This document shows, piece after piece, positions 2,796-29,444 of a stretch of DNA of 64,000 nt. Position numbers and translations under genes: made by a program. Source of the DNA: Longimicrobiales bacterium (GTDB taxonomy: Bacteria; Gemmatimonadota; Gemmatimonadetes; Longimicrobiales; RSA9); contig JBOHRF010000001.1 in assembly GCA_050732575.1 (NCBI GenBank), positions 25,595 through 89,594 of the forward strand, read 5' to 3'. The notes under the pieces are model-generated. The model saw nothing but the letters and a program-made list of their open reading frames with translations, was not told the origin of the DNA and ran no database searches. The stretch's first letter is position 1. Every line of letters starts with the position of its first letter.

Positions 2796-4001
2796 ATGGC
2801 ACGCGAAGTCTGGATTGTCGCTGCAATGCGCACGCCCATTGGACGGCATGGCGGCGCGCTCGCCCAAGTGCGTCCCGATGATTTGGCCGCGGTTGCGATC
2901 GATGCGGCGGTCAAGCGGGCGGCGATAGACCCGGCCACCATTGACGATGTCGTGCTGGGCTGCGCGAATCAGGCGGGAGAAGACAATCGCAACGTAGCGC
3001 GCATGGCCGCGCTGCTGGCCGGCCTTTCCGTCGACGTGCCCGGCCAAACGGTGAACCGCCTGTGCGGCTCTGGACTGCAGGCCGTCAATAGTGCGTTTCA
3101 CACGTTGGCTACAGGCGAGGCGGACGTGATCGTGGCCGGTGGCGTGGAATCGATGAGCCGCGCGCCCTATGTCATGCTGAAGCCTGAAGAGGCATACGCG
3201 CGGGGTGTGCCGCCGGTGGCGGACACCGTGCTGGGCTGGCGCTTCACGAATCCGCGCTTCCCCAGTGACTACACAGTTGCGCTGGGTGAAACCGCGGAGC
3301 GCGTGGCGGACCGCTTCGGCGTGACGCGCGCGCAGCAGGATGCGTTCGCGCTGCATAGTCAGCAGCGCACGGCGGCAGCGCAAACGAGTGGCCGATTTGC
3401 CGCAGAACTGGTGGGCGTGAGCCTGCCGAGTCGAAAAGGCGAATCCAAATGCGTTGACCAGGACGAGCATCCCCGACCGGACACCACCCTCGAGCAGCTC
3501 GCCCGATTGCCGGCCGCGTTTCGCAAGGACGGTACGGTCACCGCAGGCAATTCATCCGGCATCAACGATGGCGCTGCTGCCCTGGTGGTCATGAGCGCGG
3601 AGCGCGGGCAACATTCGGGTCTCTCACCACTGGCACGGGTGGTCAGCACGGGCGTTGCCGGTGTGGAGCCCGACTACATGGGCCTGGGTCCAGTACCGGC
3701 CAGTCGGCGTGCATTGAGCCGTGCAGGTTTGCGCGCGAATCAACTTCAGCTGGTGGAACTCAATGAAGCATTCGCGTCCCAGGCATTGGCTTGTATTACG
3801 GAACTCGAACTCGATCCCGAGACCGTCAACGTGAACGGCGGCGCCATTGCGCTGGGTCACCCGCTGGGCTGCTCCGGCGCTCGCATTCTGACCTCGCTCG
3901 TGCACGAGCTGCGGCGGCGCGGCGGTGGTTATGGCCTGGCCAGCATGTGCATCGGCGTGGGTCAGGGAATCGCAACCATTGTGGAAGTGTTTCCAGAATG
4001 A
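2796..4001 (+). CDS. acetyl-CoA C-acyltransferase (thiolase)
   Basis: 401 aa with NRLCGSGLQAV (active-site Cys), NEAFASQ and GGAIALGHPLGCSGARI. Confidence 0.9.
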   Translation: MAREVWIVAAMRTPIGRHGGALAQVRPDDLAAVAIDAAVKRAAIDPATIDDVVLGCANQAGEDNRNVARMAALLAGLSVDVPGQTVNRLCGSGLQAVNSAFHTLATGEADVIVAGGVESMSRAPYVMLKPEEAYARGVPPVADTVLGWRFTNPRFPSDYTVALGETAERVADRFGVTRAQQDAFALHSQQRTAAAQTSGRFAAELVGVSLPSRKGESKCVDQDEHPRPDTTLEQLARLPAAFRKDGTVTAGNSSGINDGAAALVVMSAERGQHSGLSPLARVVSTGVAGVEPDYMGLGPVPASRRALSRAGLRANQLQLVELNEAFASQALACITELELDPETVNVNGGAIALGHPLGCSGARILTSLVHELRRRGGGYGLASMCIGVGQGIATIVEVFPE

Positions 4002-28127: not shown

Positions 28128-28502
28128 ATGGCAGGCAGACTGAGCCCCGTGGCCGCGACCAAAGTTGCCGAACTTCAGGCGTTTACGCCGAAGGTTGCGC
28201 GCATCAATTCATTAGTCGAAAACTACGCCACCGCGCGCACCAACGCAGAAACGTATCAAACCAGTCTCAAGCGCGCGGCCGATCAACTGCGACTGCAATT
28301 CAATGCATCCGGATTCGATCAGCTATCCCAACTGTGCGGTACCATCGCAATGGCAACCATACGGGCCGGAAACCAGAACACGAAAATGCGCACATTGCGT
28401 GAGTTGGTTGGCAGTCTCCGCTTTCAAGTTGATCTCGCGATTCGCATCATCATTCGTGATGATGAAGAGTTGCGTGGCAAGAGTGAAACAAACGAAGTGT
28501 GA
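28128..28502 (+). CDS. hypothetical helical protein (124 aa), lower GC than surroundings
   Basis: An open frame of 124 codons in a roughly 50-55% GC stretch, with a sensible helical composition (MAGRLSPVAATKVAELQAFTPKVARINSLVENYATARTNAETYQ...). There is no obvious SD and I recognise no family. Confidence 0.4.
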   Translation: MAGRLSPVAATKVAELQAFTPKVARINSLVENYATARTNAETYQTSLKRAADQLRLQFNASGFDQLSQLCGTIAMATIRAGNQNTKMRTLRELVGSLRFQVDLAIRIIIRDDEELRGKSETNEV

Positions 28503-28526
28503 TGCTCCGAAATCGGCCCGAAGGAC

Positions 28527-28555
28527 TTGTCAGTAAAACACACGTGCGCTAGAAT
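28527..28555 (+). promoter_or_regulatory. sigma70-like promoter TTGTCA-17 nt-TAGAAT
   Basis: TTGTCA at 28527-32, a 17-nt spacer, and TAGAAT at 28550-55. It lies in a locally AT-rich patch right after a stop codon. Confidence 0.45.
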
Positions 28556-28561
28556 ACTCAT

Positions 28562-28846
28562 GCGCGTTTGAAGTGCGGTCGCTACTTCGAGTGCGCGGCC
28601 GATGTACAGGAATCTGTGTGTCGGCAGCTCGTCGAGAGGTTCGGTCCATCGATGAGCCGGTTGCGGGGTCGCTGGTCGCAACTGTATGCCCCTGAGCTCC
28701 GGGGCACCTGATCCGCTGACCGCGCGGAGAGGGTCAGGGAAGCAACTTCGATCGCCACACGTGGCGAGTCCGAACACAATGAGGTTGATCCCGCCAGCGG
28801 AAAGAGAGCCCCCAGGCTGCGATGTGTCGCACCTGGGGGCTTCTTG
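28562..28846 (+). ncRNA. candidate structured small RNA of unrecognised family
   Basis: No credible ORF. Seven consecutive hairpins can be drawn by hand: 28570-88, 28599-624, 28627-57, 28659-83, 28687-706, 28716-37 and 28752-67. A strong terminator follows. The next gene is convergent, so this is not a leader. Confidence 0.4.
28808..28846. terminator. strong intrinsic terminator hairpin, T-rich on both sides (bidirectional candidate)
   Basis: The hairpin is GCCCCCAGG-C-TGCGA-TGTG-TCGCA-CCTGGGGGC. It is followed by TTCTTG on the plus strand and by TCTCTTTCC on the minus strand. Confidence 0.7.
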
Positions 28847-28985
28847 CATCTGCGCGCTGCGCGCGGGCGCACTTCGTGGGCGCACTTCGTGGGCGCGCGA
28901 GTTTCACCGCGGGCGCGCCTTTCGGCGTAACGGACTCCGGTTCGTCGTCTCCTTACTTCGCCTCCTAGCGCCCGGCCGCAGGCCG

Positions 28986-29444
28986 TTAAACGCGCTCCGC
29001 GTCTTTCAATGCTGACAGGAATTGTTCGGGTGTTTGCGCGGCGAGCAAAGTGCGCCGCACGTCATCATTGCGAATCAAACGCGCAATGCGACTGAGTGCC
29101 TTGATGTGCGGACCGGCGGCGGATTCGGGACCGACGAGAAGAAAGAGCAGTTGAACGGGTTGTCCATCCAGAGCATCGAAATCGACCGGCCGGTGCACGG
29201 TACCGGCCGCCATGCGCAACTCGGGAACGACCGATGACTTGCCGTGGGGAATCGCCACACCGTTGCCGATGCCAGTAGAGAGCACAGCCTCGCGCTCGCG
29301 CACAGCGCGCAAGAGCTCGGCTCGCTGCTGCTCATCGCCGCCATTGGCGATCACGCTCACCAATTCGCGCAGGACATCCTCCTTGGTCCTGCCCTGGAGC
29401 GGGATCTTGACGCGATCGATGGTCAACAGCTCGGTCAGCAACAA
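28986..29444 (-). CDS. ptsN: PTS IIA-type nitrogen regulatory protein (PtsN-like)
   Basis: LLTIDRVKIPLQGRTKEDVLRELV... followed by STGIGNGVAIPHGK (phospho-His motif). No internal ATG gives the expected size of about 150 aa. TTG 29444, preceded by GAGG plus 8 nt, gives 152 aa. The track ATG 29606 would overlap the divergent gene. Confidence 0.72.
   Translation of the reverse strand: MLLTELLTIDRVKIPLQGRTKEDVLRELVSVIANGGDEQQRAELLRAVREREAVLSTGIGNGVAIPHGKSSVVPELRMAAGTVHRPVDFDALDGQPVQLLFLLVGPESAAGPHIKALSRIARLIRNDDVRRTLLAAQTPEQFLSALKDAERV

Follow-up and report, generated by a model that had tools for sequence, protein, structure and literature searches.

A predicted stand-alone structured RNA of Longimicrobiales outside the described RNA families

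The Locus

The DNA considered here (the window, 64 kb in all) derives from a metagenome-assembled genome of a Longimicrobiales bacterium, phylum Gemmatimonadota, and contains, in a gap of ∼480 nucleotides (nt) between two converging genes, what is very probably, as judged by sequence comparison, a representative of a new family of stand-alone structured noncoding RNA that matches no described family. Reading along the plus strand, the genes for AspS (NCBI MGH7466400) and a VanZ-like protein, both on the minus strand, are followed by a plus-strand gene for a 124-amino acid (aa) protein (28128-28502), by the gap and by a minus-strand gene for PtsN/EIIA-2, whose stop at 28986 lies 140 nt past the RNA terminator described below; beyond PtsN there is a plus-strand gene for a 293-aa protein without Pfam match and then the plus-strand gene for RlmN (NCBI MGH7466405). 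A first-pass annotation had proposed for the gap an orphan unit running from promoter to terminator, namely a ∼285-nt RNA of several hairpins with no open reading frame (ORF) and of no recognisable family. An orphan, independently transcribed structured RNA is supported by the outcomes of the Rfam comparison, the conservation, the codon periodicity and the folding energy that are presented here, the transcript itself being a prediction.

A Conserved Unit with a Patchy Distribution

Scanning genome representatives with AspS as bait gave two Gemmatimonadota loci among 80 and yielded a syntenic relative, L001, in which the RNA region is 88% identical to that of the window; at the amino acid level AspS is 77% and the upstream protein 48% identical, and the RNA is better conserved than its protein-coding neighbours. 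Contigs encoding relatives of the upstream 124-aa protein were then fetched, and the RNA is present at full length and in the same place in L081, L082/L083, L084-L086, L087, L089 and L090, the L090 copy being identical to that of the window; run SRR27067778 contains an identical copy. Searching metagenomes for the most conserved block, CAGGNTGCGAYGTGTCGCACC, added L092, L093, L094, L096, L097 and L098; two further metagenome pattern matches (L091, L095) and a viral one (L114) proved to be chance matches in unrelated sequence. The resulting alignment, A3, holds 13 distinct full-length sequences from Gemmatimonadota/Longimicrobiales genomes and soil metagenomes, which form two main subgroups (A and B) plus L097. 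The unit that had been proposed from a single genome is conserved outside it, and the 13 sequences differ by compensatory base-pair changes.

The distribution is patchy. Sister lineages (P0120, P0185 and P0152, with 37-48% identity in the upstream protein) carry the same PhoH-AspS-VanZ-X-PtsN-OMP-RlmN block; searches with nhmmer and with a covariance model of helices P3-P6 detect no such RNA at their loci or at a Gemmatimonas locus. Assemblies with RNA-less loci are GCA_040879335.1, GCA_035513345.1 and GCA_038257485.1. At the RNA-less loci L101-L113 the two converging stops are 14-35 nt apart or the genes overlap (for example 2872/2886 in L101). A distant partial homologue, L099, has the RNA after the same protein gene, inverted onto the opposite strand, and in L097 the RNA sits in a different gene neighbourhood without the upstream 124-aa gene nearby. 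In view of the RNA-less sister blocks, the inversion and the altered context, the RNA unit is best described as a self-contained gene that originated in, or was brought into, one subclade.

Such a distribution might also be expected of the structured remnant of a mobile element or repeat, stranded between converging genes and devoid of cellular function, and the inversion in L099, the closely spaced or overlapping stops of the RNA-less sister lineages and a fragment of insertion sequence (IS)-type transposase that adjoins the RNA in L001 all fit this picture. We nevertheless consider it very unlikely. The RNA occurs as a single copy in the 64-kb window, neither terminal inverted repeats nor target duplications of the kind left by mobile elements, including miniature inverted-repeat transposable elements, were found, and there is no copy in the viral, phage or plasmid collections; moreover, purifying selection on loops and pairing is strong, across a divergence over which the neighbouring protein falls to ∼50% identity.

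Transcription Signals and Coding Potential

A promoter scan recovers the near-consensus promoter that had been picked out by eye, TTGTCA and TAGAAT with a 17-nt spacer at 28527-28555, with 10 of 12 positions matching; the surrounding 2.5-kb region contains 2 promoter-like sites versus 0.6 expected. That the promoter lies in a locally AT-rich patch is borne out as well, the G+C content of this stretch being 40% as compared with 63.5% in the RNA body and 62% in the window. Conservation in A3 is concentrated in the hexamers (Table 1), and the spacer, the remaining positions of the −10 element and all sequence upstream of the boxes described next are variable.

Immediately upstream of the −35 hexamer are repeats of the form yCCGAARGrC (CGAA boxes), of which each of the 13 homologues has 2-4 copies in a phase of 11 base pairs (bp), with variable bases in between. 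The boxes are kept in L097 despite its different neighbouring genes, which assigns them to the RNA gene rather than to the tail of the upstream one. Activator sites of the response-regulator type usually consist of direct repeats one helical turn apart that touch the −35 element, and the CGAA boxes look like a candidate site of this kind, the nature of the binding protein being conjecture. The CCGAA core of the boxes is the same sequence as the invariant internal-loop motif CCGAAC of the RNA.

Conservation of the body starts ∼7 nt past the −10 element, exactly where the first helix (P1) begins, and stops in the U-rich tail that follows a terminator hairpin; from this we infer a 5′ end 7 nt after the −10 hexamer and a 3′ end within the tail. 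The 14-bp terminator hairpin with a T-rich tail that the first-pass annotation had placed at 28808-28846 is indeed there and is recovered in the covariation-supported consensus described below. All homologues have U-rich tails, and termination is predicted.

The gap has no credible ORF, in agreement with what had been claimed for it, and the conservation is free of the 3-nt periodicity that would have indicated a small protein gene, since the variable columns are spread over the three codon phases as 60/58/59 (p = 0.98). Indels between homologues are mostly of 1-2 nt and no reading frame is open across all of them. A gene for a small protein, whether the 47-codon ORF with a TTG start (28568-28711, plus strand) or the 153-codon ORF on the minus strand (28424-28885), thus has a negligible probability in our estimation. 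These ORFs do exist, the former being open in L001 too and a minus-strand ORF of 184 aa having been called in L081. However, it is the near identity of the DNA (∼90%) that keeps the 47-codon ORF open in L001, and even so +1 and −1 indels put 20 of its codons in another frame; phase counts are flat, there is no common frame and neither the 47-codon nor the 153-codon ORF has a Pfam match. The minus-strand ORFs across the RNA, which public gene calls list as proteins (28424-28885, 153 aa, in the window; 3192-3746, 184 aa, in L081), are best regarded as annotation artefacts, their frame not being conserved.

Folding and Covariation

The stability of the proposed fold clearly exceeds that of shuffled controls. 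The minimum free energy (MFE) of the plus-strand body (28560-28846) is −142.8 kcal/mol, with z = −4.9 and 0 of 200 dinucleotide shuffles folding as well, and z ranges from −3.6 to −6.4 over all 13 homologues. The minus strand is likewise stable (z = −4.4); with both strands folding well, energy alone leaves the strand undecided and it is the conserved promoter and terminator that fix it.

RNAalifold applied to A3 gives 81 pairs, 32 of them with compensatory changes. Two long-range helices in this consensus were rejected as spurious, GGC(138-140)/GCC(319-321), which uses bases of the group-A P2 hairpin, and CCG(4-6)/CGG(324-326), which uses promoter DNA upstream of the transcript. The structure that we scored is the consensus without these two helices and with the candidate tertiary pairs discussed below. 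Standard pairs fill 97.2% of its cells, as compared with 88.4% for column shuffles and 37-43% for slid (register-shifted) controls; 33 pairs are changed on both sides (18.1 ± 2.2 and 2-9, respectively, for the two kinds of control) and the covariation score is 0.34 (0.16 and 0.05-0.07). The bulk of the covariation signal comes from P1, P3, P6, the inner hairpin of P7 and the base of the terminator. Both sides have changed in 8 of 10 core pairs of P1, in 8 of 10 pairs of P3 and in 4 of 5 pairs of the P7 inner hairpin, and individual pairs take up several identities: 178/200 in P4 is UA 7, GC 4 and CG 2 times, 233/249 in P6 is GC 4, AU 3, UA 3 and CG 1, and the outer P7 pair 259/317 is AU 7 and GC 6. 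The basal stem of the terminator covaries also (CG 7, UA 5 at 339/363), while its 5 apical bp and loop are invariant. Individual MFE folds of the 13 homologues all contain the same P1 and P2; the P7 architecture is shared by 11 of them, L082 and L098 departing from it in the outer part. P2 varies in sequence and length, CCGUC/GACGG being found in place of CCACC/GGUGG, for example, and is longer in group B, where it has a GA/AA internal loop. At the other extreme, CGCCAGCG in the single-stranded linker is invariant in 13 of 13 sequences and in L099, and CGCUGG in the P4 loop is constant in all 13, the bases preceding it differing in 3.

The earlier hand drawing of seven back-to-back hairpins followed by a terminator therefore survives in most of its parts, six of the seven hairpins and the terminator being recovered in the covariation-supported consensus. 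The sixth, CTGACC/GGTCAG at 28716-37, is not conserved and is broken in L001 and in every group-B sequence; the conserved helix in its place is P6 (28707-28733, with loop UGACCGC). The drawing also lacked the long P7 stem (28737-28750 with 28780-28792), which encloses the TCGCC/GGCGA hairpin. Nor is the motif GGTCGC(T/A), which had been noted three times in loop regions, conserved as such: its third copy falls on the 3′ arm of P4, which varies, and the invariant parts of the copies are GCGGUC in the P1 loop and GGUCGCUGG in the P4 loop.

Table 1. Predicted elements of the RNA gene in the window, together with the PAP2 genes that follow it in relatives (coordinates of the latter refer to the locus named)
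Feature	Position	Strand	Remarks
CGAA boxes (two)	28507-28526 (CCGAA 28507-28511; CCGAAGGAC 28518-28526)	+	11 bp apart; second abuts −35
−35 hexamer TTGTCA	28527-28532	+	promoter scan; TTG invariant in 13/13 sequences
−10 hexamer TAGAAT	28550-28555	+	promoter scan; 17-nt spacer; T1, A2 and T6 invariant
Predicted transcript, ∼285 nt	28562-28846	+	ends predicted; conservation spans ∼28562 to ∼28850
P1 hairpin, 13 bp, loop GCGGUCGCU	28562-28596	+	GCGGUC 28575-28580 invariant (motif a)
P2 variable hairpin, 12 bp	28598-28625	+	GAAU loop in window; hairpin here in every homologue
P3 hairpin, 9 bp	28627-28657	+	loop with invariant AGGUUCG(G) 28637-28644 (motif b)
P4 hairpin, 7 bp, 11-nt loop	28659-28683	+	conserved GGUCGCUGG; CGCUGG 28670-28675 is motif c
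P5 hairpin GCCCC/GGGGC, 8-nt loop UGAGCUCC	28688-28705	+	stem kept in 13/13; palindrome GAGCUC 28694-28699
P6, CCU/GGG, GA/GA internal loop, UCCGC/GCGGA	28707-28733	+	loop UGACCGC; GACCGC 28718-28723 (motif a′)
P7 domain, outer stem GGGA/UCCC, stem CAACUUCG/UGAGGUUG, inner hairpin UCGCC/GGCGA	28737-28792	+	
P7 inner hairpin (P7b)	28752-28767	+	loop ACACGU 28757-28762 (motif d)
P7 3′-side single strand	28770-28775	+	CCGAAC (motif b′)
Single-stranded linker GCCAGCGGAAAGAGA	28793-28807	+	CCAGCG 28794-28799 invariant (motif c′)
Terminator: GCCCCCAGG, bulged C, UGCGA, loop UGUG, UCGCA, CCUGGGGGC, tail UUCUUG	28808-28846	+	hairpin 28808-28840; apex AUGUGU 28822-28827 (motif d′)
PAP2 gene, L082	3800-4402		same strand as RNA
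PAP2 gene, L093	77-646	-	same strand as RNA
PAP2 gene, L098	409-1008	-	same strand as RNA

Search against Described RNA Families

The statement that no RNA family can be recognised stands after comparison with Rfam 15, whose 4227 models include RNase P, SRP, tmRNA, 6S, Y RNA/YrlA, raiA, OLE, ROOL, GOLLD, HEARO and riboswitches: no family reaches its gathering threshold anywhere in the 64-kb window. When matches up to E = 10 are admitted in the region 28350-29050 the best of them is sRNA P35, with 22.4 bits against a gathering score of 70 and E = 0.56, and it covers the terminator hairpin only; the RNA region of ten homologous loci, searched up to E = 5, gives nothing beyond chance hairpin matches. 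The exclusion of tmRNA is likewise upheld by ARAGORN, which finds 0 tRNA or tmRNA genes in the window.

The seed alignments of RNA families contain few Gemmatimonadota sequences, and one might therefore suppose that the RNA is a very divergent member of a known family (6S, a CsrB/Rsm-type sponge, RNase P, SRP, tmRNA, Y RNA, raiA or another) beyond the reach of Rfam. We hold this to be highly improbable, given the chance character of the Rfam matches and the negative ARAGORN result, and two of the families named can be addressed through their architecture. Local hairpins follow one another along the RNA and its ends stay unpaired, the 5′ end lying in P1 and the 3′ end in the terminator with no closing stem, an arrangement that is not the rod of 6S RNA. 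A CsrA sponge, with five or more exposed GGA motifs, was considered and rejected, conserved unpaired GGA occurring once or twice at most, in the linker as GCGGA (12 of 13 sequences) and in the P2 loop of group A only; the remaining conserved loops are GCGGUC, AGGUUCGG, GGUCGCUGG, UGAGCUCC, GACCGC and CACG. A resemblance of GAGCCGGUUGCG...GUCGCA to domain 5 of group II introns was also dismissed, the helix geometry being wrong and an Rfam match lacking.

Invariant Loops and Possible Tertiary Contacts

Nearly all of the invariant unpaired segments have a complement elsewhere in the RNA. GCGGUC of the P1 loop is complementary to GACCGC of the P6 loop (a/a′), GUUCG(G) of the P3 loop to (C)CGAAC of the P7 internal loop (b/b′), CGCUGG of the P4 loop to CCAGCG of the linker (c/c′) and RCACG(U) of the P7b loop to (A)YGUGU at the terminator apex (d/d′). 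Along the RNA the motifs are ordered a, b, c, a′, d, b′, c′, d′, and because this order is not nested the contacts would be of the kissing or pseudoknot type rather than ordinary helices. Shuffling the unpaired nucleotides indicates that the number of complementary 6-mers between loops is in excess of chance (3 versus 0.19 expected, P = 0.006; 4 versus 0.24, P = 0.004, if the terminator apex is included among the unpaired nucleotides). None of the eight segments varies, unlike the stems around them. In L099 the apical terminator stem is wholly different, yet its loop still reads GCGUG, complementary to CACGC in that RNA's own P7b loop. The L099 lineage (GCA_033853925.1) has CCGAAA in place of CCGAAC.

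The loop of P5 contains a palindrome, GAGCUC. Its variants GAGUUC (L087) and GGGCUC (L097) are self-complementary by way of G-U pairs, and GAGCUA in L092 keeps AGCU only. The palindrome suggests a kissing loop through which the RNA might dimerise and, taken together, the complementary loops suggest a compact or oligomeric fold, with pairing within or between molecules both being possible.

Possible Modes of Action

We think it reasonably probable that the locus is a clade-restricted, stand-alone gene for a ∼285-nt noncoding RNA that has a compact fold and probably acts in trans on a protein. The RNA would be transcribed from its own promoter of the sigma-70 type, probably with the help of an activator bound to the 11-bp-phased CGAA boxes, and transcription would stop at the RNA's own intrinsic terminator. 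The product would fold into seven hairpin domains and the terminator hairpin, these hairpins, otherwise strung out in a row, would be packed into a compact particle through contacts a/a′, b/b′, c/c′ and d/d′, and the P5 palindrome GAGCUC would be left free to pair with a second copy of the RNA. The most likely action would then be in trans, with the folded particle binding or sequestering a protein; a role as mRNA, leader or simple antisense RNA appears improbable. We are led to such a compact trans-acting particle by the promoter with its activator-type boxes, the strong terminator, the dense covarying helices and the paired invariant loops.

Several points weigh against this interpretation. 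A protein partner is something that we infer, as are the transcript and both of its ends. The alignment contains 13 sequences in two main subgroups, so that many of the changes on both sides of a pair amount to few events inherited by several sequences. Covariation cannot support the loop-loop contacts because every partner is invariant, and inspection of the alignment at positions flanking the loop pairs gave no consistent compensatory signal. Counting the terminator apex as unpaired was a choice made post hoc, after the complementarity had been seen. The invariant loops could equally be read as seeds for other RNAs or as protein sites that are unrelated to one another. Finally, the upstream 124-aa (Hpt-like) gene also occurs without an adjoining RNA.

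The seed reading of the loops leads to a base-pairing regulatory small RNA (sRNA), a multi-hairpin molecule like RNAIII whose invariant loops would pair with mRNA, for instance CUCC of P5 with Shine-Dalgarno regions. As in trans-acting sRNAs, the gene has its own promoter and intrinsic terminator, visible as conserved footprints; the loops present invariant single-stranded motifs of 5-9 nt, and a probably activator-dependent promoter is typical of stress-induced sRNAs. We give this possibility a decidedly smaller weight, since for eight of the conserved unpaired motifs a conserved partner lies in the RNA itself, above chance, and since sRNAs of the seed type are usually far less structured than this RNA, with its eight covarying helices in 285 nt. 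In addition, a crude duplex scan against the starts of six neighbouring genes found no outlier complementarity, the ranks of 0.16-0.96 being within background.

Somewhat less probable again, and to be entertained as a doubtful extension of the same loop evidence, is a self-organising particle, in which the four loop-loop contacts and the kissing loop would let the RNA fold, and pair with additional copies of itself, to build a defined assembly of RNA only or of RNA and protein, or would give a novel fold of ribozyme grade, with production turned on by a response-regulator-type activator at the CGAA boxes.

The RNA might, alternatively, act in cis, its fold controlling its own terminator so that read-through drives a downstream gene or produces antisense RNA to the converging ptsN. 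A gene for a PAP2-family phosphatase is inserted between the RNA terminator and ptsN in three group-B relatives (L082/L083, L093 and L098), on the strand of the RNA and 30-40 nt past the terminator; in the window ptsN converges on the RNA 140 nt past the terminator, and the complex fold, with its pseudoknot-like contacts, recalls large riboswitch aptamers. We regard this as improbable, in line with the first-pass annotation, which had argued from the missing same-strand downstream gene that the RNA is neither a cis-leader nor a riboswitch. In the window and in six further loci (L081, L084, L087, L089, L090 and L094) the next gene is the converging ptsN, so that at least six distinct loci lack a same-strand gene; the RNA gene is inverted in L099 and differently placed in L097. 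The terminator, besides, is among the most conserved and most stable parts of the RNA, and inspection of A3, with no dedicated computation of alternative structures, showed no conserved pairing that would compete with its 14-bp stem.

Relation to Other Large RNAs

The trans-acting particle that we favour finds its closest counterparts in raiA motif RNA, OLE, ROOL and GOLLD, which are likewise noncoding, longer than 200 nt and independently transcribed, with many covarying helices and invariant loops or junctions, and whose function likewise could not be deduced from gene context. In OLE, ROOL and GOLLD complementary or palindromic loops mediate RNA-only homo-oligomers, assemblies that were solved recently (PMC12286853), and raiA RNA has a conserved compact architecture (PMC12968392). 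The RNA described here shares no sequence or covariance-model similarity with any of the four and is narrower in distribution, with 13 variants that are all from Gemmatimonadota/Longimicrobiales; it is smaller than OLE, ROOL and GOLLD, and oligomerisation is in its case only suggested by the loop sequences.

A second comparison is with RNAs under two-component control, CsrB/CsrC, RsmX/Y/Z, GlmY/GlmZ and Qrr, which have in common with the present RNA a stand-alone gene, a conserved and presumably protein-binding upstream array near the core promoter, a strong terminator and several hairpins whose loops are conserved; like them it would be trans-acting, its target being a protein (as for CsrB and Rsm) or RNAs. 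Unlike in the Csr/Rsm sponges, repeated GGA loops are absent, and the upstream element, which in Csr/Rsm genes is the GacA/UvrY palindrome, consists instead of direct CGAA repeats; no sigma-54 promoter was seen. With 6S RNA it would share the character of an abundant, protein-binding structured RNA of a few hundred nt driven by a housekeeping promoter, but there is neither a stem closing the 5′ and 3′ ends nor a central bubble nor an Rfam 6S match. Staphylococcal RNAIII, too, is a long row of hairpins with loops as possible seeds and with its own promoter under a response regulator (the latter conjectural here). It is not homologous, however, and the present RNA has no embedded peptide gene and loops that are mainly complementary to one another instead of C-rich anti-Shine-Dalgarno seeds.

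Gemmatimonadota, and Longimicrobiales especially, are abundant and mostly uncultured soil bacteria, and literature searches returned no described noncoding RNA specific to Gemmatimonadota and nothing on structured RNAs of the phylum. With eight covarying helices in ∼285 nt and a partner for nearly every invariant loop, the RNA would count, given its length, as one of the more elaborate orphan RNAs, a class in which ribozymes, protein-regulating particles and, recently, RNA-only assemblies have repeatedly come to light; should the self-organising assembly be real, it would in principle be a natural relative, below 300 nt, of the ROOL, GOLLD and OLE homo-oligomers. At a practical level, gene callers currently place spurious proteins over the RNA gene, which offers a well-defined target for structure determination, for mapping in metatranscriptomes and for a search for the regulator of the CGAA boxes.

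Surroundings of the RNA Gene

The upstream 124-aa protein belongs to a family of helical-bundle proteins of ∼120 aa that is restricted to Gemmatimonadota. Its predicted structure (pLDDT, the predicted local distance difference test score, 89) is a four- or five-helix bundle with weak similarity to Hpt, 8 of 39 family members having Pfam Hpt matches (best E = 6e-6) and the best natural Foldseek matches being Hpt proteins. The copy in the window has zero histidines and, lacking that residue, cannot be a working phosphotransfer domain. The gene always converges on ptsN (EIIA-Ntr), which itself encodes a phosphotransfer protein. The Hpt-like family is broader than the RNA (82 clusters at 50% identity, 155 profile matches), and a functional partnership of the two was considered and rejected, the gene being without the RNA in the P0120, P0185 and P0152 genomes and the RNA being without the gene nearby in L097 and inverted in L099; the link is positional only.

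At the RNA-less loci L101-L113 the spacing of the stops leaves no room for separate terminators, and in L113 the Hpt-like gene and ptsN overlap by 4 nt (3372-3375). In L001 the stretch at positions 60-640, which lies downstream of the RNA, holds, in place of ptsN, low-complexity repeats (translating as ...SLSLSLSL.../...ETETETE...) and an IS256-type transposase-like fragment. The spacer from the RNA terminator to the ptsN stop in the window has a G+C content of 72% and includes a perfect tandem repeat, 2.5 copies of GGGCGCACTTCGT at 28865-28896, preceded by two copies of CTGCGCG at 28850-28864; the homologues do not conserve this repeat, which shows 73% complementarity to the 5′ end of the RNA. 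Read on the minus strand, 28808-28846 gives the terminator hairpin followed by CUCUCUUUCC, and the hairpin could in this orientation also terminate the converging ptsN, 140 nt away.

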